NCBI GenBank assembly: GCA_000091205.1
Contig: AP006488.2
From: Cyanidioschyzon merolae
Lineage: Eukaryota
Strand: one strand, 5' to 3'
DNA: 64,000 nt
This document shows positions 10,676 through 35,684 of the stretch, in pieces. The notes beneath the pieces were generated by a model. It worked only from the letters and a program-made list of their open reading frames with translations. It did no database searches and had not been told where the DNA came from. Made by a program: the position numbers and the translations under genes. Positions within the stretch are counted from its first letter, which is position 1. The number at the start of each line of letters is the position of its first letter.

Positions 10676-11899
10676 CTACAGCGCCCTGTTTGGCGGGAGG
10701 CGAGTTTCTCTGGACCTCTGCAGTGGAGCGAACCCGCAGGAGCCTTACGGCGTCTGGGGTAGGAAAGCCTTGACCTCGATCGGTGCTGATTGCAGATGCT
10801 GGTCGGAAACAAGCCTGTCCAAATTGAAAAAAGAACAGTGCAGATCGATCGACGGCGTCGAGGCCGACGGTTGTAGGAGAAACGTATCTTGGATCGTTTC
10901 CCAGCCGAATAGCATACAAAAGTGCTCTGTAGTTTTCGGACTTTTGTTACTTTTCCGGAGTTTCATCCAGGCTTGATAATTGAAATGCAGTTTCAAGGGC
11001 TTAAGGGTTCGTAGGTTGCTTTGGGATTCTCGGTCGTCTATTCGGAGTGGCTCGTTCTACACGACGTCGCTGCAACGAGTTCAAAGCAAGAAAGCAAGAT
11101 GATCTCCGACGTTCTGGAACAGGGGTTCGTAAAATAACCGAAATCTCTATACAAATCATATGCAAAAGTTATTCCAAGTTTCCGACTCGCTGTTTCAACG
11201 CAAGTCGTGTGCGCAGGGACACGCTGGCCGCTGAATTGCCGGGCAGAGAATCTCCACGTGGTCCTTTGAAGACTTGTTTTCCAAAACTCCTCCCTATTGT
11301 TCACTGAACTTGTCAAGATAAAAAATCGGTTCGTTTCGAAACACAATTTCTCTACGCCTCTTGGCTATCAGCGAAACGGCTTTCCACAGGCGCATCAAAC
11401 ATGTCGTGGGATATGCTTCCAGAGCCTGTCGTCTATTCTGTGTGCATGGAGAAGCATCTTGGACTCGGTGTTGAGTCATCGCAGTGATCGCTTACAGCAG
11501 AGATTGCGTCACCGCTTCGCATGAAGAAAACGTAGATGGACCGAAAATTCTCGACGTGATCTCTAGCCTGGATTTTCCTTTCGGTACTTGTTTTCTCGCC
11601 AACAACATCGCATCCAACAAAGCCCTGATCAAACGGGAAAACCTGAGCCTGTGCATACAGCGGACAGGCTGATCGCAGAGGAGATCGTCCAGAAGAGGTC
11701 CGTGCGCCAAGGGCACGGCATCGGGCGTGGAAACGCTGGAGGGCATCGAGGACAGCCTTCTCCGTCCGCCAAGCGCATGGACGATGCGATGAAGCAAATG
11801 CTTACGCAACACCGAACGAATACCCGAGGAGGAAGAGAAAATATTGGTATACGTTTGGGAGCACGTGAAGATGGCCAAGTGTGCCCTTTCCAAAGGCAC

Positions 11900-17861: not shown

Positions 17862-20108
17862 CTACTGCACGTCACGGGTGTAGGAGATGGAGCGTCGCCG
17901 CTGCGGTCGACCGCCTCGCACTCGTGACGAGCGCTCGCGCCGCCCGGTACGACCACCGGGCCCATCACGCGTGCGTCCGTTCAGAGACTGACGATCAGAG
18001 TCGTCGTCAAGCGAGCGGCCGCGTCTACGCTCCAAGTGCCCGGAGCTGAAGCGATAATCATCAACACGCAGTTCTGGAAGCGCGGCACACACCTCAATGG
18101 TAAAGTCTGGGTAGCGGGTGCGTCGATCACCAGTACCTCCACCGGCAGCAGCGCCTGTTGACGCATGTGATGCCGTTGTTCCGTTCTCTGCGTCCGACGA
18201 GGTGGCGTCTGTGGTTGATTGCGGTTCCATGCACCGCAGAATCTCATCGGCAGCCTCGACGGAGACATCGAAAACTGCCTGACGAGGGTCGCGACACAGG
18301 CGCACTTTGCCAATATCATCGGTGAAGAGTTTTCCGGACTGGCTCAGACGCCGAACGATGCCGAGCACATCACGAGGCGTTACTCCCGCCCGGTTCATTG
18401 TCAGGAGCAGGGTACGCAGGCCAGCCTCACCTGTCAACAGGGAGCGGTGCTCGATATGCGTCCGTCCAGAAATGACGGCTAGTGCTGCAGCCAAAGCTCG
18501 ACGCGCATCGCCCTCGAACTGGGCTGCAGCGAGCTCATCGGCGGCCCGTTGGAAATAGGGCACAACGCGATTGGTGCTGGCTTCACCGACTGCACGAGCG
18601 GCATTCTGTGCAGCGACATCCAGCACCCGTTCCAGCGTTGGTGGCCCCGCTTGCTCGAATCGAATCGAAGCACCTCGTTCAAGGGCACGCAAAAGGCCGC
18701 GCTCAGAGTCACTGTACATGATCACTGCTGTGCCACTGCGTCCCGCCCGGCCAGTGCGACCCGCACGATGAATGTAGGTGTCGACGTCGCGCGGCGGGCG
18801 CATCTGCACAATTACGTCTACTTCATGGATATCTAATCCGCGGGCGGCAACATCCGTGGCCACCAGGATAGAGAAACGACCGTCACGAAACTGTTGCAAT
18901 GTGAGCTCGCGTTGCCGTTGACTCACATCGCCATGTAAGACCTGTGCTACACTGCTACGAAAGATGGACGCGGTCATGGCAATCTCGTCGGCTTCACGCT
19001 TTGTATCCGTAAACACGATGCACCGCTGATTTCCCGTCTCTGCGTGGGCAAACACGATATCCTCCAGCATTGCGAATCGGGCAAAATCCGCATCCGGTAC
19101 GCGAACTGCCACATGGCGAACATTCTTTGCGGCCCTGGTCTCTGTTCTGCCGACAACGTCGTGAACCACCGGCGCTCGTTGATGCTGCGCGGCAATCTTC
19201 TGCACCCATGGTGGAATCGTCGCGGAGAAAAGCACCGTTTGCCGCTCCTCCTTCGGCGGCATCTTTTGAAAGATGCGCTCCACGTCCTCAGCGAAACCGA
19301 GCGACAGCATTTCATCCGCTTCGTCGAGGACAGCGATCCGTATATTACTCAGGTTCAATGTTCCCCGATCCAAATGATCGAGAATGCGACCAGGTGTGCC
19401 AACCAGAACGTCAAAGCCGCGACGCAGCGCTTCCTCCTGTTGTGTGTACGATGCGCCGCCATAGAAACAGTCCACCGCTAAGCCGTGCGGTTGCCCAATC
19501 AAACGCAACTGCTCTGTTACCTGTTTTGCCAACTCACGAGTGGGTGTCAAGACCAGTGCACAAGGCGAGCGACCCGGAGCACCGCGTCGGCTACCGTTCG
19601 AAACCCGCGCCTCCACCATACGCTCAACAAGCGGCACGCCAAACGCAAACGTCTTTCCCGTGCCCGTATGCGAACGACCTATGACGTCACGACCGCTGCG
19701 CATGTCGTTGAATGTTATCGCCTGAATCTCCGTCAGTTCCGTGATTCCTTTCTTACGCAACGCTGCTGCAGTGGCCTCGGATAGCGGGAAGCGCTCAAGG
19801 CTCCAGTCCCGGTGCTTGCTCTCGGAGGTGGCGTTCTCCGCTTCGATGACGACGCCGTCCTGTTTGGTCGACTCTAACTCTTCCGATGGCAGGGATAATT
19901 GCATTTTTAGAGAGCACTGGTGCCGACGGGAGGCGCCCCCGAACCGGCACGCAACCGGAGTGAGTTTGCCGCGCGGTACGAAACCGCTAGTGGTGCTGAA
20001 CCAGGACGGCCGGCCGCAAAGGCGGGTCACCGGATCGCCCCAGCAGCTCGCCCGAGAAAACAGACACGTGGACTGTATTCCCGAAATGACATTGGATATA
20101 AAGGTCAT
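17862..20108 (-). CDS. DEAD-box ATP-dependent RNA helicase, with an N-terminal extension and a C-terminal RG-rich tail.
   Basis: Q-motif (FPLSEATAAALRKKGITELTEIQ). Motif I HTGTGKTFAF. Ia PTRELA. II VLDEADEML. III SAT. V ARGLDI. VI HRAGRTGRAG. C-terminal RGG/RRR-rich tail. ATG start at 20108. Confidence 0.9.
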   Translation of the reverse strand: MTFISNVISGIQSTCLFSRASCWGDPVTRLCGRPSWFSTTSGFVPRGKLTPVACRFGGASRRHQCSLKMQLSLPSEELESTKQDGVVIEAENATSESKHRDWSLERFPLSEATAAALRKKGITELTEIQAITFNDMRSGRDVIGRSHTGTGKTFAFGVPLVERMVEARVSNGSRRGAPGRSPCALVLTPTRELAKQVTEQLRLIGQPHGLAVDCFYGGASYTQQEEALRRGFDVLVGTPGRILDHLDRGTLNLSNIRIAVLDEADEMLSLGFAEDVERIFQKMPPKEERQTVLFSATIPPWVQKIAAQHQRAPVVHDVVGRTETRAAKNVRHVAVRVPDADFARFAMLEDIVFAHAETGNQRCIVFTDTKREADEIAMTASIFRSSVAQVLHGDVSQRQRELTLQQFRDGRFSILVATDVAARGLDIHEVDVIVQMRPPRDVDTYIHRAGRTGRAGRSGTAVIMYSDSERGLLRALERGASIRFEQAGPPTLERVLDVAAQNAARAVGEASTNRVVPYFQRAADELAAAQFEGDARRALAAALAVISGRTHIEHRSLLTGEAGLRTLLLTMNRAGVTPRDVLGIVRRLSQSGKLFTDDIGKVRLCRDPRQAVFDVSVEAADEILRCMEPQSTTDATSSDAENGTTASHASTGAAAGGGTGDRRTRYPDFTIEVCAALPELRVDDYRFSSGHLERRRGRSLDDDSDRQSLNGRTRDGPGGRTGRRERSSRVRGGRPQRRRSISYTRDVQ

Positions 20109-22674
20109 ACTTGATTTTTCAACCGCTCTTACGGAGCGTACGATACGAAGTGACGGTGCTCGATAGCCTGCAGCACACGAGCGACGTTAACGTTCGAGAG
20201 CGCAGCGGCTTCATCGCCGCCGTCGTCGACGCCGTCGTCAACGTCGTCGCCAGTTTGCGCTGCTGCATCCGGCGTGTTCGCTCCATAAGATTATCGTCCA
20301 GCGCCCGTGTCATTCGACGGTGGAGCGCTCGGGGCGGGCTGGTGGCGGCTCGCCCTTGAGCAGGTACAGAAATGGGTAAAAAGTTATCTGCTTGTCCCTG
20401 GCGATCTCCTTGCAGGAATCTCTTTTGTACTACCATGTACGTAAATATACAGTTTAGTTCAGTGCCGGTCCGTGGCGACGCGCATGCAGCGCCTGGGGCG
20501 GCACCCGCGCGCGCCTATCGAAGCGCGGGGCACCATTGATTGTTCAGCAGGTGCCCGACTCAAGTCCTTCCTGCTATCTTCATGCGGAGCTAGTGCATTT
20601 CTAGTTCGCTGTAACGCAGCGTATTCGTGCGTGGATTCGGGCGAGAATTTGAATAACGCTCTCCTGGCCACTTATTTTTTATTCGATACCTGGAGCGTTT
20701 CAGCAGAGTGCCCACACTGCATGCGGTGCAGTACCCTCGAAGGTTCGCTCGATACGAAGCCGCTGGATGCTCCAGAAACACAACACTTTTTCCGGATGCT
20801 GGGCGAGACCTTCAATTCTTGGTGCGCAAAGTGCTTGCGCGATTATGGCTCGTAGACTCATGCCATGGTAAGTCGCTTACTGTTCAATGCCTTGCCATCT
20901 GAGGTCCGGTCAGCTTCGCGTGAGGAATCTTTTGCATGCGGCGCTGTTTGGCGGTCTTCTTCTTTACCATTTTGAATCGTGGGACTGTGCTCGTGATTCG
21001 TATATGTCGTCCTGAACGCGTCAATGAGCATCGTACAGAATCAAGTCCTGCACTTGTTGTACGCTTTCGTCGAAGGACCAGGAGCGCAGGGGCCTTTGCT
21101 TGCTCGTCACCGCATCCATCGCGAGCACGCCTACGGGCCGATGCGCGTCTTCCCGTTTCGTCCTGTGCACGATCATAGAAGCAGCGCGGGCGTCCAAGGT
21201 CGGTGAAGGTAGAGAGCGACCTGTCCGAGTATGGTATCAAGAGGCGGACGAATCATCTATAGATCGATGAATGTGAAAATGGCGTTTCGTGTCCATAAAG
21301 ATTTATAGGACTGTGTTGAACAAGCGCTAATAGGCTGGCATGAAGAGCAGCTGAACGCCAATCTAAGCTGCATACTCCTCGACCGATTGGAGTGATGGAA
21401 ACCGACATTGCCCGAGACCCGGACAGGAGAATGTTCGCAAGATAAACATGAAACGCTCTTCGACGAAGGATGACGTGTTCGTCGATGTCATCCGTATGAT
21501 GATTTGGAGGCGAACAGACGATTGCATCGAGGCTAGGGTTCATGTTGTCGTCATGGGAGCATGACCCTTCTTTACGAACAGCGGTTTGAACCCCCATCCC
21601 TGCTTACCCATATACTGGTCTAAAGATTCTCCCTAATAACGTCTCATCGAATGGATCAAACACCCTTCGCTTCTGTAAAAAGCGTTCGCGTTTCGGTACC
21701 TACTCGATCATGTCTACTCCAACGCGCGCAAGCGTCCCAATGAAGCGTACGTTTCCCCTTGTCTGTGCGGGTCCGTCCGTGCCCGTTCGTATCCAAGGCA
21801 CGGAAACTTGACATCCTCTGGCTTTTTTGGTGATATTTTTTGCAGAACGTTTGGAGTGGAATGTATTGACAAGGAGACGATCGTGTTGGTATGGCAGAAT
21901 ATGTTCTGTTTTGAGTACACGACGTTCAGAATGAGAACGATGAGAAGGGTGCTTTATCAAACCCGCTAACCGAAGAATGGCGAACGTCTACAATAATGGC
22001 CGTCTTCCGCAGGCAACGAGTGACACGACCAAGTCTCTTCGCGACGTTTCTCCGATCTTCTGGAACCATTCATATAGTTGAATACTCCCAGAAACACGAA
22101 TGAACATGGGAAGTGGCGTGCCGGTACAGGTGTACCAACATGCACTGTTCTGAATGTCAAGCTTCTCGACCACTGACACCTCCGATGCATACGTTCTGAT
22201 AGGGCATCGGTGGCCGTCAGTGTTCGTCGCCCATATTCTCGAAATCCACTGCCAAGCACCAGAACAACAACATCGCCAACAGGACGTTTCTCGATACCAA
22301 GTATTGTCAAGCGTGCATCCATGGACCGCGTAACGCGTGCAGGCCGCTCCTGAGACGACTCACAGTTCGTACAAGCGCACTCCTGACGCCATCGGAGGTA
22401 CTCAAGGAGACGACCTCGTCACAAGTTAAACTTATAGGACCCGAAAATCTGCGTCAGGGTGTATGACGCTCCGCTGGAACCCGAAGAAGCGTTCTTAAGG
22501 AACGCGCAACGCAAGCCACTCCCGGAAGTCATGCGAGCACTTGACAGACCCAGACTAGGCGGCACGTCGCGCCACCAGCGGTATCGCAACATGAATGCCC
22601 AAGCAGCGTGCGTCAACTTATCCCTGAACAACCAGCCAAAAACGACATTCGGTTGCCTCGGCTTGCAAACATCT

Positions 22675-25611
22675 TTACGCCGACCCGGACTTGTCCTCGA
22701 GGTCGCCTTGGAGCTCAACCATCACCTGAGACTTGCTGCGGCTTTTTCCTCGCTGTGCTTCCCACTCCTCTTGTCGACGACAGAATTCAAGCTGTTGCTC
22801 GCGAGCAAGTTTTTCCAGCTCCTCGATCTCGCGCTGTTCGACTTCGCGACGTTGCCGTACGGCGTCGGCCTGACGAGCGGCAGCAGCCTCCCGCTGCTGC
22901 TGGCGTTGCTGCAGCTCTTCGTGACGGCGCCGGGTGCGCTCCTGCGCTTCAGCCAGCAGCCTACGTGCATATGCCAAGCGATGTAGGCACCAGCTGCTAT
23001 TGGCGTGCGCAGCCTCCGCGGTAACCACTTTGTTTGTCGGACCAGCAAGCGATGGTTGCCATTGTCGAACGACATCGGTAGACACGGAACGTTGCATCTG
23101 ACGGAGGCTCATTTCCATGGCTCGGAAACAACCGCCAGCGCATTCCAGGAGAACCGTAGCTACCTCCGGGTCCGTACCGTGATCAGGACGGCTGAGTCGA
23201 ATGGAAGACTCTTGAGCAAGGGTCAATGACAAGTCGAACCATACCGACAAAGCGGAAGGTTGCAGGTGCAGAGCGCGCTGCAGGGTCTCCATGCAAGCCG
23301 CATACTGGCCAAGGCCGTAGTGTGCAGCTGCGAGTGCCATCAAGGCCCCAGCATCGTACGGGGCGCTTTGAAGACGATCATCAAGAAGACGTATGGCGTT
23401 TCGGAGCGAGGCCACGACAGCGGAACCACGCGACAAGTGCACAGCTATGAGATTCGCCCGAGCACATTCCATGATTTTGGGTTCCGCCGAAGCAACTGCA
23501 CCTAACTGGGCCACCGCACAGAGGGCCTCCTCGGCTTCACTCAAGAGATTCATTTCACGGAAGTAGACTCCGAGAAGTTGCATCGCAGCGACATTATCAT
23601 GCGCGCGCTCTAGAACACCCAATAGCAGGTTTCCCGCAGCTACGAGAAACTTGTGACGGCGGCTCTGATGATGGCGAGCAGTCGCTCGTGCCAAGGTTAC
23701 ATAATACGCAGCAGTGACGAGATCGCAGTAATTTCGAGCTTGGTATCGCGTTTCCAAGTCCTTGCGTAGTTTCTTTCGACGGATAAAGTACTCGAACCAT
23801 GCTTGTGCCTCGTCAACACGGCCACGAGACTGTGCCAAAAAAGCCAAAGCCGTCACAGCTCGCGGATTCGGGAGCACTTGACGATACAGGTCCTCGGCAG
23901 TGTTCAAGTTCCGGTGAAGGTGCTCGGCTAAGACGCCTAGACGCAGCGTGGCATCCTCGTACTCAGGAAATTGTTCATGGATCGTGCGGTAGATGCTCTC
24001 GGAGCGCGTTAGATCGCCCAGTGACTCAAGCAGCCGCCCGAGGTTGTAGCTCAGGGTCAGGTGCCACGGACGCTTGCGGATGAACGCCACCTCAGGGAGC
24101 CAGGTTCGCAACGACAGCCCCTGATCGCCGGTAACCAACTGAAGCGCCCGCTCCAAAGCAATATATGCCTCGTTATACTGACCGAGGCGTACTCTCAAGG
24201 CAGCAATGTTGTTCCAGACAATCGGATCATCCCAGTGTTTCCCCAAGCGCGAGTAAAGCTGCAGCGCGAATGCCGGATCCAGTCGATCCATCAGTTCCGC
24301 GTACACAGCGAGCGCCTCTGCCGGTAGCTGCTCCAAATCCGTGCCCTGCAGTAACTCGAGTGCATGCTGCTGCGCCTGCTCGAGTGCCTTGCGTGACGCC
24401 TGCTCATCCGCTGCTTTCTCCTGGAGAATAACAGCAGAAAGCGCCCGGAGATAGGCATCCAGCCGAGCGGGGAGCGCACGCGACCCCTGTTGGCGAACCC
24501 GCTCTATTTGATCCATTGCTTGATCGAGCGCGTTTCTCCGCAACAGCGAATACGCAAGTGCCAAGCGGGCAACTGCCATCTCAGTCCAATGCTGGATACT
24601 GGTACCGTAGTGCGTTTCAGCCTCAATCCAGTCGCCGCGTCGTTCTCGCCAGCGACCGAGCAGGTATTCGGTACGTGCTGCGGCCCTGTGTGTGGCGGCT
24701 TTCCAGGTGTCCGGTTCAACTGCTCCCAGGAATCGAAACGCACGCTCTCGATGCTCGTGTACGATCGCATTACGGATTCGAAGCTCTTGGGGATAGAGCA
24801 CGAACGCCTCGCGAAGCAGCTCCTCAGCGACAGCACGTGCAGCTGCGGTATCCTTTGCCTCCGACGATGGACCGTGCGTCGGGGCCTCGAGAGCTCGCAA
24901 GCACACCCAGAGGCCCAGTAACGTATCTGGATGTGGATATGCGTCGTCTGCATCCGAATAGTGCATAACGCTCCGATCGATCCGCTCGCACTCCATCGAA
25001 AGACGCCAGCTGAGCACGCGTGTAGCGTCGAGCAACTTGCCGGCGGCAGCGAGCGCGTATGCGTATGAACACCACCATTCCGCTGGTGATGCCTCACCGT
25101 ACATCCAGAGCGCATCCGCATACCAGGCTGCAGCCTGCTGGGCTAGGTGCGGCTCGATGACGCTCCGTTCGAGGAGCACCCGCCCGAGGCCAACTCGAGT
25201 CAAGAGCAGAACAACAGGGCTTGTCTGCGGTTGGACTGCACGAGCGCTCGCTTCGAAGAGTTTCTGTGCCCCCAGGGTGTCCTCCTGAGCGAGGTGAACG
25301 AAGCCTTGCCAGACTGGTGCTAACTGCGCAGCTGCACGGTCGGTTTGAGCGAGTAACGAGGGCTCGAGCTCGACCTGCTCGGCTGCCAGCGTCACACCGA
25401 GTGCAGCCTCCAGCACTGCCGCAGCTTGAGGCCATGTTGAGCGTGCGGACTGCACAAGACGCACGGCTTCGTCCCACTGACGCTCTGCACAGGTGTTCAG
25501 GAACCTGGAACGCCACTGGCTCCAGTTCGTCAACTGCTGTTCGGGCACGGCGACCTCGACGGTGCTGCTGCGTGCCTCGACGCCCGCACGAGGTGCGTTC
25601 ATTAAAGCCAA
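22675..25611 (-). CDS. Large TPR-repeat protein with a C-terminal charged coiled coil, possibly Ctr9/Paf1-complex-like. The ORF opens at TTG; the first ATG is ~25602.
   Basis: A 978-aa ORF with many 34-aa TPR-like units (e.g. WNNIAALRVRLGQYNEAYIALERALQL, ALMALAAAHYGLGQYAACMETLQRALHL). The C-terminus is an R/E/Q-rich heptad region. The Ctr9 assignment is a guess from architecture only. Confidence 0.7.
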   Translation of the reverse strand: MALMNAPRAGVEARSSTVEVAVPEQQLTNWSQWRSRFLNTCAERQWDEAVRLVQSARSTWPQAAAVLEAALGVTLAAEQVELEPSLLAQTDRAAAQLAPVWQGFVHLAQEDTLGAQKLFEASARAVQPQTSPVVLLLTRVGLGRVLLERSVIEPHLAQQAAAWYADALWMYGEASPAEWWCSYAYALAAAGKLLDATRVLSWRLSMECERIDRSVMHYSDADDAYPHPDTLLGLWVCLRALEAPTHGPSSEAKDTAAARAVAEELLREAFVLYPQELRIRNAIVHEHRERAFRFLGAVEPDTWKAATHRAAARTEYLLGRWRERRGDWIEAETHYGTSIQHWTEMAVARLALAYSLLRRNALDQAMDQIERVRQQGSRALPARLDAYLRALSAVILQEKAADEQASRKALEQAQQHALELLQGTDLEQLPAEALAVYAELMDRLDPAFALQLYSRLGKHWDDPIVWNNIAALRVRLGQYNEAYIALERALQLVTGDQGLSLRTWLPEVAFIRKRPWHLTLSYNLGRLLESLGDLTRSESIYRTIHEQFPEYEDATLRLGVLAEHLHRNLNTAEDLYRQVLPNPRAVTALAFLAQSRGRVDEAQAWFEYFIRRKKLRKDLETRYQARNYCDLVTAAYYVTLARATARHHQSRRHKFLVAAGNLLLGVLERAHDNVAAMQLLGVYFREMNLLSEAEEALCAVAQLGAVASAEPKIMECARANLIAVHLSRGSAVVASLRNAIRLLDDRLQSAPYDAGALMALAAAHYGLGQYAACMETLQRALHLQPSALSVWFDLSLTLAQESSIRLSRPDHGTDPEVATVLLECAGGCFRAMEMSLRQMQRSVSTDVVRQWQPSLAGPTNKVVTAEAAHANSSWCLHRLAYARRLLAEAQERTRRRHEELQQRQQQREAAAARQADAVRQRREVEQREIEELEKLAREQQLEFCRRQEEWEAQRGKSRSKSQVMVELQGDLEDKSGSA

Positions 25612-25873
25612 AGACTAGACAAGACTTAAAGAACCTCCTGCAAAGAGCGGAATCACAGACTCGAGAACCGGAACAGAGTACCAAACAGCTGTGAAGGAAC
25701 AACCCAGGAGTGTCCACGGAAACGCCTTTATAAGGACGTGGAGCACACACCACCACCGCCGTTCTAAGTCGAACGACGTCGGGCGTGTACAGTAGTGGCG
25801 AGAAACCCGCCTTGGACAAGAAATCTTCCACTGCGGTGTAGACGCCTTCCAGCCCTTTGAGAACGGCCACCCA

Positions 25874-26314
25874 CTACTGCTTCCAAATTTCTATCATATA
25901 GTTAAACATGAAGAGGTGTCCAATGAAGTTCTCTCTTGTCGACTCTGGAGGTCTTTTCTCCAGCACCGCACATCTCCTTATATTGATTGCGGCATTAAAG
26001 TCTCGGTTCACAAACTCCATACGTTTCTTGCAATTGATTGTACTTCCTAATGCAAGTAGCCCTCGAACTTTCGCCCTCCTTTCCATTTGCTCGTCTGTCA
26101 GCGGTCCGTACTTTGCGATTTCCTCAGGGCTCCGTTGGCACTTTTCCATCTCGACCCTATGAAGTATACAGTCCAGTCCATGGTGTATATACGATGTTCG
26201 AAACTCATCTACAGGTATTGTAACAAAACGCCTTGCCCACTCCTTGTACGTTCTTGTCGTTGGAGCTGGCGTAGTCCATTTTTTGGGTCTTCTAGCGCCC
26301 TGCTCCGTACGCTT
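25874..26314 (-). CDS. Fanzor-like nuclease, C-terminal segment. It carries a TS motif, a Cys/His cluster and the RuvC-III catalytic motif.
   Basis: The open frame reads ...TIPVDEFRTSYIHHGLDCILHRVEMEKCQRSPEEIAKYGPLTDEQMERRAKVRGLLALGSTINCKKRMEFVNRDFNAAINIRRC.... The '(N/D)RDxNAAxNI' element is the hallmark RuvC-III of TnpB/Fanzor/Cas12. The frame is offset from the middle segment by a ~90-100-nt putative intron (gtttgc...tag). Confidence 0.6.
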   Translation of the reverse strand, partial: KRTEQGARRPKKWTTPAPTTRTYKEWARRFVTIPVDEFRTSYIHHGLDCILHRVEMEKCQRSPEEIAKYGPLTDEQMERRAKVRGLLALGSTINCKKRMEFVNRDFNAAINIRRCAVLEKRPPESTRENFIGHLFMFNYMIEIWKQ

Positions 26315-26401
26315 CTACTAGCCTCTGATTTTCATCCTCCTTCAGGGCACTCAACTGATTGAAAAAATTCGCGAACGCCCGCTGCTTCCCACAATACAAA
26401 T

Positions 26402-27187
26402 TCATTCGCAAACGAGCCCACGGGGGTTGGTATACTTCTCCCACAGCGCATCCCAATGCGCCATGCGAACTTTCATGAACTCCCGAAAAGCTTCAAAGTC
26501 CGCCCCTCGGCTCGTCACCTCGCTCAAAGCTTCCAGGTGATCCTTCGTTCCTGAATTCCATGTAACGATTTTCTTCCTCGCATTCATGGTGCCCGATTCC
26601 CGATTGTATCTCGCTCTCGAGAACCTCAAAAGACGCATGTCTTTCTGACGTAAGTTACCATCAGTCCCATCTTCCGCACACTTTGGTACAGAGATGGTTA
26701 TGATATTTGTATTCCCAGGGTCCGCGGCAACGACAAAGTCGTTATCTTCCACTTTCTGGGTCGCAGGATCCGCCTCCTTCTTTTCTTCATCCTTCGCCGC
26801 GTCAAAGACAAAGTCGTTATCCTGCACTTTCTGGGTCGCAGGACCAGCCTCCTCCTCATCTTCATTCTTCGCCGCGTCAAACATAAAGTCGTTATCCTCC
26901 ACCTCCTGCGTCGCAGGACCAGCCTCCTCTTTGTTTTCTTCATGCATCGCCGTGCCAACGACAAGGTCGTTATCTCGCACCTCCTGCGTCGCAGGACCCG
27001 CCTTCTTCTCATCTTCATGGTTCGCCGAAGGCGGAACTGGCCGATCTTTCTTCAACCGCCGATAGTGTATACATAAGGCCACTCCATCGGTTTCGATCAC
27101 CCCCGTGAATACCTTTTGTTTGCTCACGTTGAGACGTTTGAAATCGAAGATACTCCTCCAGTACGTCTCCCGTTTTTCACCGGAGAA
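26402..27187 (-). CDS. Fanzor-like nuclease, middle segment. It carries a 24-aa x4 acidic tandem repeat and then a RuvC-I-like motif.
   Basis: '...[21 protein letters not shown]...' resembles the D-P-G RuvC-I motif of Fanzor (I/V-D-P-G). It is preceded by four copies of 'EEAGPATQ(E/K)V(E/Q)DNDF(M/V)FDAAK(N/D)E(D/E)'. Confidence 0.55.
26715..27010. repeat. In-frame 72-bp (24-codon) tandem repeat x4 inside the Fanzor-like coding region.
   Basis: The DNA unit '...aaagtcgttatcctgcactttctgggtcgcaggaccagcctcctcctcatcttcattcttcgccgcgtcaaagaca...' repeats 4 times. Antisense ORFs 26694-27065 (+) and 26698-27018 (-) are by-products. Confidence 0.8.
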
Positions 27188-27437
27188 TTACTCCCTGCTG
27201 ACATCGAACTCGGGACTGATCTCCCTCATGATGCCATGAAGGACTGCGGAGTCGGTAGTCACAAAATGTGACTTGATCTTGCACACTGGAACCACGTCGA
27301 AGCGCTTACCCATTCGGAAAGCCTTCCGTCTCTCCTACTCTTCATTTGTCTCTTCACTCAGCTTCATCTCTGCCTTGCGTTCGAACTCTCGCTCCAAAAA
27401 CACAAAATAGCGCACGATGAGGCGATAGTATCTTTCC

Positions 27438-28334
27438 TTACCTTTTTTTCAACACTGATATCTTTTCTGTTGGATTCGCCAGCCCCAGTACCGCACGGTG
27501 CTCTTGTATAACCGCGCGGATGACGGAGTCCTCATTTGTGCTCCTGCGTGACGTCTTCTTGTCGACGAATTCGACCTCACCTTCATGCTTGCGATCTTTC
27601 GTGATGCCATTGATAATCGCAAATTTTCCATTGCGAGACAGACCCGGGTAGAGTGCAAACACGGCGCGTATCATGAAACGTTCGAGGTTCGTTGTCAAAC
27701 GGTTCTTCAGGTTCGTAATGTACTTCATTGCCCCGTATGTGTAAATATCCTGGTCACCCTTGTATCGAGTACCATTGAAGCTGTAAAAGGGATGTTTTCC
27801 GTGGAGGGCATGCACCCGCTCATTTTCCATCCGCGCTTCCTTTGTACCAAGCATCAGCTGACGAATAAACTTCTTATCGAAAAACTCGTCTGGAATCTCG
27901 ACCGTTTCCATGTGCGTCACGTCGCGATACATCTCTCTCACCAAATGCATCAGTCCTGACGACGCCTTGACGATACTCTTGGAGTATGACGCAACACGTT
28001 TTTCGATAGCGTCTCGCAACTTTTCCCTGTAGGGATCCTTGATATGTCCAAGAAGAAAGGTTTTCACCACCATCTCGTTGTACAGCCGTCTTTCTTGCCG
28101 CCTTCGACGTAGGGCCTCTCCCTTTAGGTCCTTCTTCGCTTCCTTGTCTTCTGGACTCGGCACAGTTTTCGTTTTTTTCTGGTAGTCGGCGACCCTCGGC
28201 CTCCAGGATCGTCGACTTGCTTTTTCATAACTTTCCTTTTTTAGTTTTTTTTTGAAAAAGAAAGCTCCTGGAACGCTTCTGTTATATACTGCGAAAAAAC
28301 AATTGAATACACATGTTTGAGGTTTGAGACTCAA
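27438..28334 (-). CDS. Fanzor-like nuclease, N-terminal segment (298 aa). It ends at an AG|GTAAGG splice donor.
   Basis: Uninterrupted basic/charged N-terminal region. The ORF's TAA stop lies inside 'aaaaaaaGGTAAGG' (+strand ccttacc at 27436-27442), a consensus 5' splice donor. Confidence 0.55.
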   Translation of the reverse strand: MSLKPQTCVFNCFFAVYNRSVPGAFFFKKKLKKESYEKASRRSWRPRVADYQKKTKTVPSPEDKEAKKDLKGEALRRRRQERRLYNEMVVKTFLLGHIKDPYREKLRDAIEKRVASYSKSIVKASSGLMHLVREMYRDVTHMETVEIPDEFFDKKFIRQLMLGTKEARMENERVHALHGKHPFYSFNGTRYKGDQDIYTYGAMKYITNLKNRLTTNLERFMIRAVFALYPGLSRNGKFAIINGITKDRKHEGEVEFVDKKTSRRSTNEDSVIRAVIQEHRAVLGLANPTEKISVLKKR

Positions 28335-28711
28335 ATGAACTGAAAACTATACTTGGCTATGAAGTTAACGAAAATACAACTTTTACATTAGAGCTACATG
28401 CTAGATATCAAGATCACGTTTTCCTTCGACGGCGGCATTTTTTTCATAAACAAAACGTTTCCTTTGGCCAGCGTTCTCCGACTATGCGCGTTTCTCTTTT
28501 CTTACTTTTTTGTGTTTTCCAATGTGCGGTGAAGTATCCATCAAACAGCCTACTTCCAAGTTCCATTACCTATACTTCTTCTAGGATATTCTGGTCGTTT
28601 CATACGTCCTATCGGGTGTGCCTCGTACCTGCCTTTCTGTATTCGCCTTTGCACCTTAAATGCTGGAGCAGATACCTCATAGAGACAGAACGGCGTTGCC
28701 GTACCACAGAG

Positions 28712-28830
28712 GGCGTCGGCTCAAGGCGTGGTTCACCCGACGTAGAATCGGGTGTCGTTGTCTGTTTGTGCTCGGACAGTCTGCGGATGCAGGCCTGTCT
28801 TCGCTGTACGACACGCTGGAGACACTTGGC
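28712..28830. repeat. Dispersed repeat, copy 1 of a pair with 33806-33925. About 75% identical and in the same orientation.
   Basis: 'gtgctcggacagtctgcggatgcaggcctgtcttcgctgtacgacacg' aligns to 'gtgctcgcccagtctgcgtatgcagacctgccttcgcggcacgacggg' and the flanking ~60 bp. Both copies translate on the minus strand to similar peptides (RRQACIRRLSEH.../RRQVCIRRLGEH...). Confidence 0.6.
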
Positions 28831-30451
28831 TGTTAGGATAAATCGAGGGAGTCGCCTCCCTCCTTTGTGATCATGCATGGAATGCGTTGTCGTCGGTTGG
28901 CAATGCGGATTTGTGCTTGACACCCACCACAGTGGGTAGGCGCAGAAAGCGCACTGGCCCCGTGTTCGCATCCGATCCGCTGGACCTTCCGCCCAGAAGG
29001 TAGCATGTGAGTTTGTTCGCCATTAATGAGCGCTGAGGCTCCGTTAGCGGACCATCAGTTGCCAGTGCTGCACTCAAAGTGAGTGTCCGGCCTTCGCCTA
29101 TCACGGCGATGTCCAGCTGCTGCTGTCCTTCAAGGAGCTCGCTGCGCTCCTGTTTCCAGTGCGGGCACTATAAGCCTAAATATGTCAGCGTCTCGGGGGT
29201 CTGGTCTCCAGAGCAGGGACAGTGTGATTCCCAGTGCGATTCCGGTGTTTCCGTACGGCTTAGAGACGGTGCTAGTCAGAAACCACCAACGCGGATTTCG
29301 GCGATCCACTGGGTACCTCGAGCAAGTCCCGGGAATTCCAGCACCCACTACCAGTACTTGCATGTGTATGCTAGGGTGTAGTTCCGGATAGGGTCAAGCC
29401 GGCGTTACTTGCGCGACTGGTTCCATGTCTACATTCCCGTACTGTTGTTTGGACCGTTCGCTTCAGGCGACGGGAGAATTCTATATTTCTGGGGAACGAT
29501 TGGGTAGCGTGTTTTCGCGTAAGAGGCGCTTCAGCCAAATCTGCGCTGATTTCATCCAAGTGTTCTAGCGGTGCGTTGGGGTCTGCATGAAAATCCGACT
29601 GAACCAGGTGTACATGGTGGGCCCTTTGGCCCACACACGTGCCTGGCAGCCTGCTGCTATCGCTTCTATTGAGGGTATTTGGAGTTCAAGTCCGAGTGCC
29701 AGGCAGGTTGGTTGCTCTGCTCTGCATTGAGCATCCAACAGCAACAACGAGTCGCATTGCCCTGTTGGCGGCTATCTGCAGACGTGAGATATTTGTGTGG
29801 TTCATGCCGCACCATTCAGCACCCCAGGTCGCAGGCTGGATGATACACATCCTTAGCGCCCTGGTACGAATTGCTAAGGGGATAGAGGGGTCGGATGGGA
29901 ATGGGCGTGCGATCGCTGTACGTCTATGCATCTTGGCGATCATCTCGTCGATGTGTGCCTTTTCGTCGAGCGTCGGCGTGAGACAGACCCTGCAGATAGC
30001 GATATTTTTCCACGATTGGAATTTCCTGATTCTGCAACCGCCACGAGCGATTGCGAATGCTCTGCGAGTCTCCATGGATGAGCATGACGCCGCACTTCGA
30101 TGCTCCTACGTTCATCTTCCAGCGATCGACCCAGGTGCTGACTTGTTCCATGCTAGCCGCAAGCGTTTCCGGGGCGGATGCCAACAGCACGACATCGTCC
30201 GCAAGTAGAAGGCCTGCGAGGCGGTTCGTATGTGAGGGCTCCTCATCGGGCATCTCCACAGTCTATCCACGGCACCTCAAGCCCGTATTGTCTGCAGTTG
30301 TTCAGCAGATCGTTGATGAAGATGTTGAAAAGGAGCGGGGATGCGGGGTCGCTCTGTCGCAGTCCACGGCGGATTCTTATACGAGGGATTCATGAGCCGT
30401 CGCCCAGTCGGATGCGCATCCATGAGTCTGCATAGAGCGCCCGGAAGAATG

Positions 30452-31480
30452 CTAAGCACTTTTCGGAGACTCCGGCGCGTTCCATCTTGAGAAATAGAGC
30501 CTCATGCGGGACCGTGTCAAAGGCCTTTTGAAAGTCGATGAAGCATACATGAGGATCGGTGCGACCTCAACACTCCTACATACATCAGGGATGTATGCTT
30601 CTTCGAACATGCGTTGGATGAGCTCCAGAAGGCGTTTGCCCAGGATTCTGTCAGATTCATCTGGTATCGATGGTGTCCCTGTTGTCTCGTCTTTTGGGGT
30701 CGCCAGTTTCATCCACTCCGTCGCGATACCGTCGATGCCAGGTGTTTTGCGGTTGCTTGAGCATAGCAGGGTCCGAACAGATTCAGGCCAGAAGATTGGG
30801 TCGTTCCATACCGGTACCGGTTCGAGGCGCGGTAGTTCTGCAGCATATTGGTGCCGATAGATTCGGTTTTGGCAGTGCCCAGTTGCGTCTTCATGCAGCT
30901 CTGTCCCGTGGTCTGTGCAGGCCTCATTCACTGAGGCACTCTCCGTCCTCAGCGCTTCCTCATAAACGATTGGTGTGAGCCCCAGGCACTTTTTTGGTGG
31001 GTCAAGTCTCGATCGGATGTAGCGCCAGGTCTCATCTTCGTTGGTGCTCTCTAGCATAGATTTCGCCAGGGCGGCGATTTTGCGGCTTCGATCCTCTCGT
31101 TTGTCTTCTCTGGAAAGTTTCTTCTCTCTTTTGATAGCTTCCTCATGTTGTGCCTGTAGCGCCGGTAGCGCTGCCTTCGCTTCCATGTCTCCGGCGTTGG
31201 CGCGTATGGCGGTGCGGTTGACGATCTTATAGAGTCGGCGGTATTCATCAATCCGAGTTTTGGTACGTCGTTTCAGGAACTGAGGTTTGCAACTGTTGTG
31301 TTCTGGTCCAAGCAGTCCCAGCTCTCTGGCGGTCTTCTGATTCCCAGCTACAAACTCGCGTGCCAATTGGTCTAAAGATTTGCATGCACGGCTTTTCGGA
31401 TCTACAGCGCTGTGAGTAGGTGACTGGGTTTGGCGACGGCTTTCTTGAGTTCCTGCTCGGGTGCTCTTTCGGGGGATCAC
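30452..31480 (-). CDS. LINE ORF2 reverse-transcriptase N-terminal fragment.
   Basis: KTPGIDGI (RT domain 1) and ...RLLELIQRMFEEAYIPDVCRS... The RT continues in the shifted ORFs 29924-30259 and 29686-30075. Confidence 0.6.
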   Translation of the reverse strand: MIPRKSTRAGTQESRRQTQSPTHSAVDPKSRACKSLDQLAREFVAGNQKTARELGLLGPEHNSCKPQFLKRRTKTRIDEYRRLYKIVNRTAIRANAGDMEAKAALPALQAQHEEAIKREKKLSREDKREDRSRKIAALAKSMLESTNEDETWRYIRSRLDPPKKCLGLTPIVYEEALRTESASVNEACTDHGTELHEDATGHCQNRIYRHQYAAELPRLEPVPVWNDPIFWPESVRTLLCSSNRKTPGIDGIATEWMKLATPKDETTGTPSIPDESDRILGKRLLELIQRMFEEAYIPDVCRSVEVAPILMYASSTFKRPLTRSRMRLYFSRWNAPESPKSA

Positions 31481-31511
31481 TCATGATGGGCTCGTTTGGG
31501 AGTTCTTCTTT

Positions 31512-32441
31512 CTATTCTTCTGTTTTTTTCTTGCTGGTCTTTTTCTTCTTCGGGCTCTTTCCTGAGCTGCATTCTCTGCTTATTTTGCATCTAGGTGGAT
31601 CATGAGGTTTCTGTGCCTCCTTCTCCGTATCCCGTTGGGTCTCTTTCGCTATTGTAGATCCCTCTATTGTTGTCTCTTCTTCGTTAATGTACTGATAATT
31701 CGTTATCTTTTCTCGGAAGGCTGCAAGTGACTTGTTGGTTAGCATCCGGGCTTGGTATGTTGAGGGTGCACTTGCTGGTAACCCTTGCTGTGCGCTCTGA
31801 GTCGTGTCGGCTGCTGGTTCAGCATTTTGGTTCCTCGGGCGCGGGTACCATCTGCAATGGATGGGCCAGTGATCTGAGGCATCCCAAATTCGGTCAACGG
31901 CGGTTTGTAGGAGTGCCGGGTCGCATCGGTCGCTTAAGATGTGGTCTATCGATGAGCGAAGCAAACGTTGGTCGGTAATGCGGTGCCACGTCAGGGGTGA
32001 ACCTCTACACGGATTCACCGACAGGAATCCGCATCTCATTCGTTGTAGGTGTTGCCTAAGGTGGCCCGCCGACATGTTAAAATCTCCCATAATTATCATC
32101 GGTTCCTGATTCCGTGTGCGGCGTTTCAATCGCTGGATGTTGGAGGCCAACTCTTTGAGTGCCTGTTGGCGCATCTCTCCGGCGTGTGGTATATAAATGG
32201 AGCCCACAAGCCAAGGTGCAGGCTGACCTGGAATTGTAACACTCACAAAGACCATCCATGGAGACGGGTTGCCGACCGCATAGCAAGTGAGGCGTCGATC
32301 GACAGTGAGCGCCACACCACGTGTGCGTAACGAAGTTGGCTTCTCCGTAGGGTCTACGTATGTTGGTTCAAAGGTGTTGTCGCCTGGGGTATGCAGACGA
32401 TAATACGTCTTTGTGTTCTCTGAGTGTAGTGTCTCCTGCAA
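31512..32441 (-). CDS. LINE ORF2 endonuclease (APE/EEP) domain fragment.
   Basis: GDFNM, IDHIL and SDHWP motifs are typical of L1/RTE-type AP-endonuclease domains. Confidence 0.65.
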   Translation of the reverse strand: MQETLHSENTKTYYRLHTPGDNTFEPTYVDPTEKPTSLRTRGVALTVDRRLTCYAVGNPSPWMVFVSVTIPGQPAPWLVGSIYIPHAGEMRQQALKELASNIQRLKRRTRNQEPMIIMGDFNMSAGHLRQHLQRMRCGFLSVNPCRGSPLTWHRITDQRLLRSSIDHILSDRCDPALLQTAVDRIWDASDHWPIHCRWYPRPRNQNAEPAADTTQSAQQGLPASAPSTYQARMLTNKSLAAFREKITNYQYINEEETTIEGSTIAKETQRDTEKEAQKPHDPPRCKISRECSSGKSPKKKKTSKKKTEE

Positions 32442-33805
32442 TGCTAGGATATGGACGTCTCAGCGTTCCAGGAAGTACCTTACGTCATCTAGTATCGAGG
32501 CTGTCCCACAAATATTCCATGATGCGGAACCTATCGAGTCGTAGCGCATAAGGGAATAGGAATAGCGCTGCGGTACTCGAGAGATACGTTGTCGATTGAG
32601 ATGCACCCTCCACGGCGTGTGAGAACGCACATGCCACCATTGCCTCCTGCATTCCAGTCGTTCAGTGAGTGTCTGCCGCAGCGCTAGCGTAGAATCAGAT
32701 GTACATTAGTCAAAGTCGATTCGAATGCGACCTTTATCTTGCCGGACGTGTGAAGCTACCTTCAACCACTGGGGATACGCTATGAACCACCCTGTCAGCG
32801 GCTTCGTATCCGCTCCCCAAATACATAGGCGGGCAAGTCGCTTGTTCCAGCTTCTACCGCGAACATACTGCCAGCTGTCTTCCGAAGTATCCGCCGAGAT
32901 TGTTTCCAAAGTTGAGGTAGGTACCCAAGGTAGGAGGTAAAACTGAGCCCGATTTCGAGGATGGATCTAGGATTCGCGCCGGAACCCGCAGCGTTGTTTC
33001 GAGAGCAGCGGATAACTGCTCAGCATTCTCGTCAACTTTTTCTGCTGCTGCTGCCTCCGCCCTTCCGTTCCTTGCGGTCAAGGTTCCTGTTGTGGGCTTC
33101 CTTCCTCGTCGCCCGAGCACCCCGTGTTTACCCACTTTCAGAGCTTCTCCGGAAAAACTAGACCTCTTAGGCGGGCGTGGTGTGTGGGTCTTTAAGATAG
33201 TTGTTGTTTATTAAATAGTTTGCGACTAGTTTGTTTTTTTCGTCTCCTATCAATGCGGCAGATGCCGAGATCATTCTACGGGAAAAAATCCGAAGCGGCT
33301 ATTCAGTCGTTTTATGGTCTACCGCGGGTTCGCCTCGCCGTTTCGTGTGCGGAAACAGACCAGCAGCGGCATCACTCGTGTGCGCCTGCTTGGTATCGCT
33401 CCGAACGGCTTCAAAGCGTCGACTAGAAAAGTCGCGCATGCGTCTGGTAGCGCGTCTGGCATGCTAGTCCAGTGCCCACAAACGATGATCGTTTCCCTGC
33501 ACGCTGTCCGAGCATTGGACGCGATGGCTTCAATACCGCCTGACTCCAGCCATCCTTTCTTGATCGGCGGAACGTTTACACTGACCAGAGATACATGCCA
33601 CTGTGCAACTGGATATCTGCATCCGGGAAAGCGTCCGTGATAACTCGCGCTACGTCAAAGTTCCACGACGCGTACTTATGCTCGGAGGGTGTGGTCTATG
33701 CATAGGTTCCGCAGCACACCGAGTCTGCTGTGAGCGCTCGCCAAGACGCCTGTAGCGCCGGCGCTGATGCAGCACACTGACAGAAAAGCTTTGCAAGAAC
33801 GTTGA

Positions 33806-33925
33806 GCGTGTCGGCTCGAGGCGCCGTTCATCGATCGCAGGGTCGTGTCTCGTCGTCCGTGGGTGCTCGCCCAGTCTGCGTATGCAGACCTGCCTTCGCG
33901 GCACGACGGGTTTGAGAAACCCCGC
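33806..33925. repeat. Dispersed repeat, copy 2 of the pair with 28712-28830.
   Basis: See copy 1. The spacing is ~5.1 kb, bracketing the LINE. Confidence 0.6.
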
Positions 33926-34358
33926 GATGACGAAGAATCCAAGAGGCCGAGTCTCAACTTTGCTCGTTATCCACCAGTGAGGTGGTGTACGAATCGCTGG
34001 ACTCGCGTGCGCATCTAGTTCGTGGAACCATTCGCCTAGAACGTTGCACACAACGACTGGCCCAGAGATCCAGAGTAATTCCAGCGGATTCACTCCAGAG
34101 CGATTCTTTCTCGCACAAGAACGGGCGTCTAGAATCCGATTCCGCGGATGTGCAACTGCTGCTTGTCATCAGAAAAGAGATCAGGATCCTTCACAGATGC
34201 ACCCCGTGCGCCAGCTCTACCAGCATCATATTCATCTTTTGCTTGTGAATCGAGGCTACCACTCCCGATCGAGATGCATCAGCGGATACGAGCAGGAAAC
34301 TGCCCCAAGGCGTACATCGTTGCAAGTGAACGCTGCCCATACGAGTGAGGCCATAGCG

Positions 34359-34859
34359 CTAACCGGAGAAGTAGCGCTTTGCGAGATTTTTAGCCACTTC
34401 GTGGAACCGCTTGCTCGTAATCGGTGCATCCTCTTCTTGGAATGGGTTGCACACCACATGAGGCACATAGGCCTCGTACACGGCGTGCAGAAACGCCCGT
34501 ACGTTCCGTGACGCATCGTCGCTAGCCCCATGCACTAATACGAAGCGCGTGGCTGCGTTCGGCGTGAGCTGAACCGATGCAGACCAGTCACGGAATCGGA
34601 AGATATGCTTCAAACTTCGGGCCGAGGTTAACCAATATTTCTCCTCGATATGGTCCAGAGCGCTGTAGGCAACGAACTGCAGGAGAACCTGGATGCTCGG
34701 TATGAAATGATGGGGCTCGAAGTCTCCACGCTCTGCCGGACTCGAGAGCTCTGAGCTCGTTCTCCAGTCCAGCTCGGAGAGCGATGCCGGATACAAGAGA
34801 TCGTAGAGAACACGGTCATCTCGTCCGACGATCACAAAATAATAGAGCCGCTCGCTCAT
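34359..34859 (-). CDS. TRAPPC2: TRAPP complex subunit 2 (sedlin/Trs20).
   Basis: 'MSERLYYFVIVGRDDRVLYDL...FIPSIQVLLQFVAYSALDHIEEKYWL...RFVLVHGASDDASRNVRAFLHAVYEAYVPHVVCNPFQ' matches the sedlin fold signature (MSGSFYFVIVGHHDNPVFE...FIAHAALDLVDENMWL...FIMLHD...NPFY). ATG start confirmed at 34857-34859. Confidence 0.85.
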   Translation of the reverse strand: MSERLYYFVIVGRDDRVLYDLLYPASLSELDWRTSSELSSPAERGDFEPHHFIPSIQVLLQFVAYSALDHIEEKYWLTSARSLKHIFRFRDWSASVQLTPNAATRFVLVHGASDDASRNVRAFLHAVYEAYVPHVVCNPFQEEDAPITSKRFHEVAKNLAKRYFSG

Positions 34860-35289
34860 GGTACGACGTTATCGATCTTCCCCGCCTGCCGCGGTTGCCT
34901 CTAAAACCAAGATGATGCCGGGTCCGCAACACCGCCAAAAGACGCGGCAGTTCCCCAAAACCGGGATCAATCAGCGCTCGGGGAGTAGCGCCCCGCCGAA
35001 AGCACCGAACCCTGCTCTAGGTTCAAGAGCAAATCGCAAACAACCCGTCTACGTCTTTTCAAACGTTTGCCGAACCAGGGCAACGAAAGATACGTCAAGT
35101 GCTGATCAGGCTCCAACGACGGTCGTCGTAACAGCAACGATAGCAGTCGTAATGATATCAGCAGCAGGAACAGTAACAATAGTAGTAGCCTGAACCTGTA
35201 CCCAGTGCCACTAGTGCCAGTCAACGGAGCCAGGACAGCTGAACTGCACTTTCCCAAATTCAGGTGCCCTGCTTCATACCCTGCCTTTG

Positions 35290-35576
35290 AAATAAGACAC
35301 AAACTCAGCTCTAAACCCTGAAACAGAAATAACAGCAGTTTTACTGAACGTTCCCACAGCTCTTGTTTCCTGACAAGTTGAGGCTGCTGCTAGGCGTCAC
35401 ACCTCCGAATTGTACAGGCACGTGTGCGCTGAAACAAGACACAAACTCAGCTCTAAACCCTGAAACACAAATAACAGCAGTTTTACTGAACGTTCCCACA
35501 GCTCTTGTTTCCTGACAAGTTGAGGCTGCTGGTAGGCGTCACACCTCCGAATTGTACAGGCACGTGTGCGCTCTTA
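35290..35576. repeat. 2 x ~143-bp tandem duplication in the 5' region of the 35.7-36.6 kb gene.
   Basis: 'aa(g/c)acacaaactcagctctaaaccctgaaaca(g/c)aaataacagcagttttactgaacgttcccacagctcttgtttcctgacaagttgaggctgctg(c/g)taggcgtcacacctccgaattgtacaggcacgtgtgcgct' occurs twice head-to-tail. Confidence 0.85.
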
Positions 35577-35684
35577 AGAGAAACGCCGCTGCAGGGCGTC
35601 TGGGCAAACAGCACAGCGGCTCTGGAGGGAGCGACGCTGTTGCGACAACGAGTTGAGGTTTGTTTCGAGCGAGAGTTTGCTCCT

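Follow-up and report, generated by a model that had tools for sequence, protein, structure and literature searches.

A covarying two-hairpin module at the 3' end of a decayed Fanzor1-type element in Cyanidioschyzon merolae, a candidate ωRNA scaffold

We describe the 3' end of a Fanzor1-type element in a stretch of 64,000 nucleotides (nt) from contig AP006488.2 of the Cyanidioschyzon merolae assembly GCA_000091205.1. This whole stretch is called the window below, and all coordinates refer to it unless a metagenome locus (L-numbers) is named; P-numbers denote homologous proteins. The element contains a broken TnpB/Fanzor-like gene on the minus strand, from about 28.4 to 25.7 kb, which is split over several frames. 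Just past the position at which the family consensus of this gene stops, a short module of two covarying hairpins and a conserved linker was found. On balance, the most likely reading of this module is that it is the scaffold of an omega-RNA (ωRNA), and we favor this reading because the module has the same position, size and two-stem-loop plan as the ωRNAs of SpuFz1 and PpFz1. The 3' end of the element (25741-25874, minus strand) would then supply a scaffold in the form of a sense transcript to which the Fanzor protein binds, and the host DNA just past the right end would be read as the guide. In the window, the guide would come from the DNA upstream of a neighboring TPR-repeat gene, starting at about 25756-25740. 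Discrete transcription of the module, its binding by the protein and guided cleavage are what we infer from the sequence.

The consensus stop of the family lies at 25812-25814 and is TAG in most copies and CAA in the window. The roughly 70 nt past this stop hold the hairpin S1, a linker, the hairpin S2 and a G/T-rich tail, all on the minus strand. S1 (25797-25811), the candidate ωRNA stem-loop 1, begins 1 nt after the stop and pairs GGCGG with CU(C)GCC around a variable loop. Pairing is kept in 94-95.5% of its cells, and one pair is G-C in 25 sequences and C-G in 23. The linker, ACUACUGUACACGCCCGA (25779-25796), is conserved and predicted to be the unpaired part, with a per-site diversity of 3-27%. 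The motif CACUACUGUACAC, made up of the C just ahead of the linker and the first 12 nt of the linker itself, is conserved to at least 90% and is predicted to stay unpaired. The terminal hairpin S2 (25757-25778), the candidate stem-loop 2, reads CGUCGUUC - GACUUA - GAACGGCG, and its conserved pairing joins 25778-25771 with 25764-25757. In S2, 84% of the cells are paired and 8 of the 10 pairs show changes on both sides. The G/T-rich tail, GUGGUGGUGUGUGCUC (25741-25756), is conserved only within a subfamily, as seen from the end points of the alignments. A pairing of this tail with the linker was considered and rejected, since swapping tails between copies cost no energy (Wilcoxon p=0.57).

S1 and S2 were predicted by RNAfold in almost every copy. 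RNAalifold, applied to the whole 253-column 3' alignment, recovered S1 and not S2. To capture S2, a structure had to be given explicitly and a covariance model built, because one subfamily (GUUUUUC...GAAAGGCG) keeps this hairpin in a register offset by 3. In a plain MAFFT alignment, 82% of the cells were paired, compared to 37-47% when the partners were slid by 1-3 columns; a slide of +3 gave 67%, which represents the alternative register of that one subfamily. The covariation score of this alignment was 0.192 versus 0.163 for shuffles, none of which (0/500) scored as high. The covariance model, R1, comprises S1, the linker and S2 and was built from 23 sequences. Its only significant match in the window is at 25755-25821 on the minus strand (84 bits, E 1e-24), a sequence that was itself in the seed. 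R1 gave 86 further matches in the metagenome loci, all but two of them directly following the 3' end of a Fanzor gene, for a total of 87 matches and 60 distinct sequences. In the alignment fitted to the model (60 distinct rows), which leans towards the structure and holds related copies, so that shuffle controls overstate significance, 88.4% of the cells were paired versus 35-41% when slid by 1-2 columns. In that same alignment, nine pairs had changes on both sides versus 4.8 expected (0/500), and the covariation score was 0.179 versus 0.117 for shuffles. Among the helix cells, G·U or U·G occurred 94 times and A·C or C·A 18 times. Since G·U outnumbers A·C in this way, the pairing is selected, and read, on the sense strand. 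R1 detected nothing beside the distant relatives L087-L092, and neither blastn nor R1 found other copies of the family in the window.

A sequence-only reading of the window, made before this analysis, had pointed to small palindromes as compatible with a structured RNA. Both cgacgtcg (25774-25781) and gtcgaacgac (25768-25777) are present, but as evidence they do not rise above chance: about one perfect 8-nt palindrome is expected per 280 nt (273 positions x 4^-4), and those noted sit in the 5' arm of S2, where the conserved pairing differs from them. The single-sequence fold has a z-score of only -1.64, with 13 of 200 shuffles folding equally well, and so it is the comparative signal and not the palindromes that exceeds chance. 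These same figures are what would speak for palindromes and fold being meaningless altogether. That explanation is hardly credible for the module: it holds only for 25620-25740 and is refuted for 25741-25874 by the 87 model matches, which covary and, with two exceptions, lie right after a Fanzor 3' end.

The extent of the element was determined by comparison with sister copies. When metagenomes were scanned with the C-terminal alignment, at least 450 relatives were detected, and 79 of their loci were returned. With window 26200-25300 aligned to these copies by blastn, all 87 alignments ended in the interval from 25835 to 25740, most of them between 25791 and 25742, and none ran beyond 25740. 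Conservation of the flank among other copies of the element was looked for and found, with at least 60 distinct metagenomic sister copies sharing the 3' flank. In the multiple alignment, conservation is lost just past S2, 0-16 nt beyond it, which sets the boundary at about 25757-25741. Flanks past the module are unrelated between loci, and the junction is fuzzy over about 15 nt; on these alignments, the right end is placed somewhere within 25741-25756. The tails after S2 read TTTGGTG, GTGGTG, TTCGGTG or TTTGTT. A Helitron-type right end (a single 3' hairpin about 10-12 nt before CTRR, a 5' TC and insertion into AT) was considered and rejected, since the tails are never CTRR. The sequence-only reading had taken 25620-25900 as the scaffold and right end. 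Of this, 25741-25900 does lie in the element, with 25741-25874 past the premature stop described below, but 25620-25740 (121 of the 281 bases) is host flank, a unique stretch upstream of the TPR gene to which no copy aligns.

The frame of the gene does end with a TAG at 25874-25876 on the minus strand, as had been read from the sequence, but this is not the stop of the gene, which by consensus is 25814-25812. The window copy lacks one A at about 25917 (a gap in column 47 of alignment A2), and because of this -1 frameshift the stop at 25874 is premature. The deletion is not an assembly error, because L081 and L082, independent contigs with 99.3-99.5% identity, agree with the window at 25917. 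Many relatives continue past the 25874 position into a conserved tail. The consensus of 66 copies is an open frame ending in ...ENFVGQPLKVELYEKKLEAVVGGRSKKTGRRLHVSWRRFV*, and it runs 37 codons beyond the frameshift point and about 21 codons beyond the premature stop. The consensus TAG ends the longest frame in 12 of the 66 copies (including L052, L016, L076, L020 and L010). Up to about 10 codons ahead of the consensus stop, variability is higher at third codon positions than at the first and second, and this signal is lost in the last 10 or so codons. A recurrent alternative stop was seen 45 codons ahead of the consensus stop, after ...RPPE, at A2 column 23 (window 25938, the middle base of the TCG codon 25939-25937). 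At least 10 distinct copies (L031, L005, L025, L029, L077 and L078 among them) have TAG as this codon, and the remaining ones have TTG, TCG, TGG or CTG.

Within the coding tail, no helices with covariation were found in the 3' alignment. Three candidate helices, CUGGAG/CUCCAG, CCGGUC/GACNGG and GCGUCU/AGACGU, were rejected, having zero compensatory changes by eye. Third-position diversity in the coding tail is not lowered over 60-nt windows, save for one short run, CTATATGAG in the consensus and CTATATGAT in the window copy (25896-25888). Located some 80 nt ahead of the consensus stop, this run is near-invariant, third codon positions included (diversity 0-5%), and could represent the promoter of the RNA or its 5' part.

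The conserved tail follows the consensus stop immediately and, if the gene is expressed, would be part of its sense transcript. Structured 3' untranslated regions (UTRs) are common, and the tail may be a plain 3' UTR of the Fanzor mRNA that serves stability, termination or polyadenylation with no guide role. We consider this quite improbable. Conservation extends right up to where the element ends, with the structure directly adjoining the flank; the characterized TnpB and Fanzor systems all place their ωRNA exactly there; and no conserved motif resembling a poly(A) signal was seen in the alignment.

The protein family was identified from a frameshift-corrected translation of the window copy. 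In JGI metagenomes, this translation has 45 relatives that are 57-82% identical and two more at 32-33%, and a profile search returned more than 310 proteins of about 600 amino acids (aa). The fold was tested on an intact homologue, P0044, which is 33% identical to the corrected window translation (E 6e-76), and not on the broken window copy. The AlphaFold (AF2) model of P0044, made with a 53-sequence alignment, has a predicted local distance difference test score (pLDDT) of 91 and a predicted TM score (pTM) of 0.87. Over its full length, the model matches the SpuFz structures 9ceu, 9cez and 8gkh in the PDB, which have the WED-REC-RuvC-TNB fold of Fanzor1 proteins, at TM 0.69-0.70 and E of about 2e-22. 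PpFz comes second, followed by GtFz of Guillardia, and Cas12f is far behind (E 1e-6, TM 0.25). In the 53-sequence family alignment A4, the RuvC columns D361, E521 and D565 are invariant or nearly so. Their codons are still readable in the window between 26722 and 26000 (minus strand), as judged from the translations and the A4 columns: the D in AADPGNTN at 26722-26720, the E in VDEFRTS at 26206-26204 and the D in NRDFNAAINI at 26002-26000. Sequence models recognize little of this. The Pfam model Cas12f1-like_TNB (PF07282) gave only 12-15 bits against a cut-off of 26.3, which is sub-threshold; searches of the PDB by phmmer or profile gave zero matches for the family; and the four cysteines of the Zn-ribbon (OrfB) are not conserved in it. 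Precomputed matches to PF07282 and DUF8286 exist for a few relatives. By its modeled fold and its active site, and not by current sequence models, the family is Fanzor1-like. A 75-nt (25-aa) tandem repeat was also observed inside the Fanzor open reading frame (ORF) just before RuvC-I, at 26695-27027 (minus strand), with four copies in the window and about one to six in relatives.

The window copy is a dead relic, with a broken ORF and a 5' end lost to a retroelement. It occupies 25741-28438 on the minus strand and is 84.5% identical to L001 over 25740-28438 (blastn). Compared to the intact P0001 ORF of L001, it has at least four frameshifts (at about 27440, 26426, 26278 and 25917) and nonsense codons at 27335 and 27188. 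Other copies reach about 50 nt further 5' (CGCTCAGTGAGCGCACCTGGGAGATC...); the window lacks that stretch, which is replaced at 28438/28439, and the missing left-end 26-mer is absent from the rest of the window. What follows, at 28439-29703 (minus strand), is the 3' part of a retroelement, "X", of the type without long terminal repeats, which ends ...AUGAAAAAAA at 28439 in a short A-rich 3' end (...ATGAAAAAAA). Reverse transcriptase fragments continue to 31480 (minus strand), with an RVT_1 match at 29924-30259. In L011 and L045, the same retroelement stops 6 nt before the Fanzor left end; flanks elsewhere are unrelated. Since the window copy is dead, any ωRNA made at this locus would have no cognate protein from there. 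The paralogous proteins P0025 and P0039 (71-75% identical over the aligned parts) end in the same frameshifted peptide as the window copy, at about 26426. This frameshift, shared at a C-run, reflects either an already-broken copy that was propagated or a deletion that recurs.

A different role for the hairpins is suggested by their position. They could be DNA-level cis signals of the right end that are recognized by the transposition machinery (for example a rolling-circle/HUH-type or other end-binding enzyme), rather than an RNA scaffold. A fuzzy right end follows the subterminal hairpin within 0-15 nt, and neither terminal inverted repeats nor target duplications were found, only 7-10-nt similarities at about chance level. 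The left end, which is absent from the window, is placed tentatively at CGCUCAGUGAGCG in other copies and likewise opens with a palindrome, CGCTCAgTGAGCG. Fanzors of Chlamydomonas are carried by Helitrons, for which fuzzy right ends have been described (PMC10288648). In addition, two loci (L031:956-1062 and L016:1335-1431) contain a 5'-truncated Fanzor 3' end of about 107 nt, comprising the S1-S2 module, which has the same orientation as the next Fanzor ORF and precedes it by about 780 nt, an arrangement of the kind that rolling-circle elements leave. Nevertheless, we regard a purely DNA-level role as rather unlikely. Two hairpins and a conserved 13-nt single-stranded linker, starting from the stop codon, exceed the single 3' hairpin of the Helitron type, and no CTRR terminus is present among the tails compared. 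The excess of G·U over A·C is strand-specific and fits RNA best, with single-stranded DNA as a possibility. Distant protein relatives adjoin genes for DDE_3 (Tc1/mariner-type) transposases, which use no hairpins. The right-end hairpin of IS200/IS605 elements has a dual DNA and RNA role. By analogy, DNA-end and ωRNA roles could coexist in this family as well.

The bases before CGCTCAGTGAGCG at the left end read (C/A)A(T/G)CG in about eight unrelated contexts. They could be a transposon-associated motif (TAM) or target motif, or they could be part of the element. In five of the eight contexts the left-end flank reads A|TC. L031 and L016 have at least 1.9 kb of upstream sequence in common, and other copies match progressively less of this region (from 1153, 1216, 1364 and 1656 in L031 coordinates). 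The copies thus share the upstream region to differing extents, which makes any placement of the true left end of the mobile unit tentative.

Several points weigh against an ωRNA scaffold and temper our preference for it. Hairpins near a transposon end can be signals at the DNA level, and the covariation and G·T tolerance fit a hairpin of single-stranded DNA as well. The statistical support from the model-fitted alignment carries the bias given above. The junction of scaffold and guide is not fixed, since the right end is fuzzy (25757-25741), and the TAM is undefined because the left end of the window copy is missing. In the search against Rfam, nothing in the window reached a gathering threshold, and 25600-26100 had no match even at E<=1. 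Lastly, the frame is open through about 250 codons to the consensus stop in only 5 distinct copies among the 66 (six loci, of which L010 and L006 have the same sequence), and the family may, judging by these frames, be extinct.

Downstream of the relic lies the TPR-repeat gene (975 aa; Pfam TPR_1, TPR_19 and others), at 22675-25602 on the minus strand with an alternative start at 25611. The distance from the premature TAG to its start is 263-272 base pairs (bp), in line with the 260-270 bp given by the sequence-only reading. The two genes are not divergent, as had been supposed, since both are on the minus strand in tandem, and the right end of the relic is about 140-155 bp upstream of the TPR ATG. 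Overall, the earlier proposal of an ωRNA module at the 3' end and right end of the element, upstream of the TPR gene, stands, so far as sequence can show, as to the ωRNA-like character and place of the module, and was revised as to orientation, stop, extent and palindromes; it had also missed that the copy is a pseudogene, decayed and truncated at its 5' end.

The tandem arrangement raises the question of whether the 3' end of the relic was co-opted as a promoter or 5' UTR of the TPR gene. A TATA-like motif, UAUAAAGG, follows the relic at 25732-25725 (minus strand), its reading as a TATA box being our own, and L081 and L082, two independent contigs from the same population, have their first bases within the relic (at 25870 and 25927) and extend across the TPR gene. 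These starts are just as well accounted for by a repeat that broke the assembly, and the TATA-like motif lies outside the element. The conservation of the module is among transposon copies at unrelated loci and hence does not come from regulation of the TPR gene. We therefore judge such co-option to be very improbable as an explanation of the module. From its sequence, the last stretch of about 120 bp before the TPR gene is best regarded as host promoter DNA and not transposon. The L082 contig is 99.5% identical to window 21932-25927, and at its end (L082:1-12, corresponding to about 25927) it has T12 in place of the GAGAACT of the window, which could come from an antisense transcript with a poly(A) tail or from an artefact of assembly.

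Gene order around the TPR gene bears on the insertion history. A protein 99% identical to that of the window, P0165, is likewise 975 aa long, and one TPR orthologue comes from the Los Azufres fumarole-sediment run SRR17356570 (PMC9583776). A relative with a 65%-identical TPR protein keeps the order Sedlin_N, TPR and DEAD helicase, and the order DUF3110, Sedlin_N, TPR and DEAD helicase is conserved between window 18240-36598 and L083-L086. The Sedlin-TPR spacer is 1.5 kb in this relative versus 8.8 kb in the window, and so the Fanzor relic and the retroelement are insertions into the spacer. The G+C content of the Fanzor segment is about 0.48-0.50 versus about 0.56-0.59 in the surroundings, and long uninterrupted ORFs are typical of genes in the window. 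A search for an empty site gave none: no recorded protein matches the TPR protein exactly, L081 and L082 (99% identical) have the Fanzor insertion too, and the 65%-identical relative shows no alignment to the window between the genes.

Further decayed Fanzor C-terminal remnants, belonging to a second, divergent subfamily, were seen in the window at 2874-3074, 51436-51687, 21130-20972 and 52399-52160. The regions concerned are 1897-3275, 50484-51792 and 11355-11609 on the plus strand and 20972-21704 and 52160-52399 on the minus strand. Three remnants are each immediately preceded, in the same orientation, by what is left of a DDE_3-like (Tc1/mariner-type) transposase gene (1897-2696, 50484-51248 and 21704-21249), and these pairs mirror the DDE_3 and Fanzor gene pairs of the distant relatives L087 and L088. 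None of the decayed DDE_3-like ORFs in the window was recognized by Pfam. One element may be bounded by a possible 31-nt inverted repeat (1552-1582 and 3245-3275).

These findings correct the annotation of the window, since the Fanzor gene is a pseudogene and its true stop and right end are elsewhere than assumed. They also provide a concrete ωRNA candidate, with coordinates, two hairpins and a linker, for a Fanzor1 lineage that is barely recognized by profiles, and a covariance model, R1, that locates the module after sister copies of the gene. Should the few intact relatives and the scaffold prove active, the editing toolbox would gain a small guide-RNA/nuclease pair that comes from an extreme habitat. 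A broader scenario, which we offer as a long shot, is that of an abundant and so far undescribed Fanzor1 lineage of an acidic geothermal, intron-poor eukaryote, perhaps a cyanidiophycean-type alga, with a minimal two-hairpin ωRNA of about 70 nt. The terminal hairpin of this RNA would at the same time be what signals the transposition of a non-autonomous element, and broken copies would go on spreading with the few intact genes acting in trans. If this is true, the lineage could yield a compact RNA-guided nuclease that tolerates heat and acid.

Finally, we compared the family with known systems. Among bacterial elements, ISDra2 and other IS200/IS605 TnpB systems likewise take the guide RNA from the 3' end of the gene and the right end of the element, with the guide from the flank (PMC10432273). 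The bacterial TnpB ωRNA overlaps the tnpB ORF extensively, whereas the supported structure here lies almost wholly past the consensus stop. Chlamydomonas Helitrons resemble the family in having a hairpin near a fuzzy right end, in lacking inverted repeats and in carrying Fanzors, and they differ in that the family here has no CTRR and two hairpins. No Rep/helicase gene was seen in 570 kb of loci, and relatives are linked to DDE_3 genes instead. The ωRNA arrangement of SpuFz1 and PpFz1 comes closest to the module (PMC10432273, PMC11423790). In the solved Fz1 complexes, the first stem-loop has seven base pairs, and SpuFz1 and PpFz1 have only one further stem-loop before the guide, in RNAs of 90 and 75 nt, respectively (PMC11423790). 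SpuFz1, from Spizellomyces punctatus, is the best structural match to the P0044 model (TM 0.70), with only about 15% protein identity and no sequence similarity between the RNAs. Its elements have 30-nt inverted repeats, in contrast to this family, in which none were found. Here, about 70 nt separate the consensus stop from the right end, with S1 of 5-8 bp and S2 of 8-10 bp. PpFz1, from Parasitella parasitica, is the second-best structural match and has a minimal two-stem-loop scaffold of 75 nt in total. It has an extra FRI domain, whereas the family here has instead the variable 25-aa tandem repeat before RuvC-I. Fanzor1 right ends with a two-stem-loop ωRNA are already known, and this family, with its candidate module, would be a further case.

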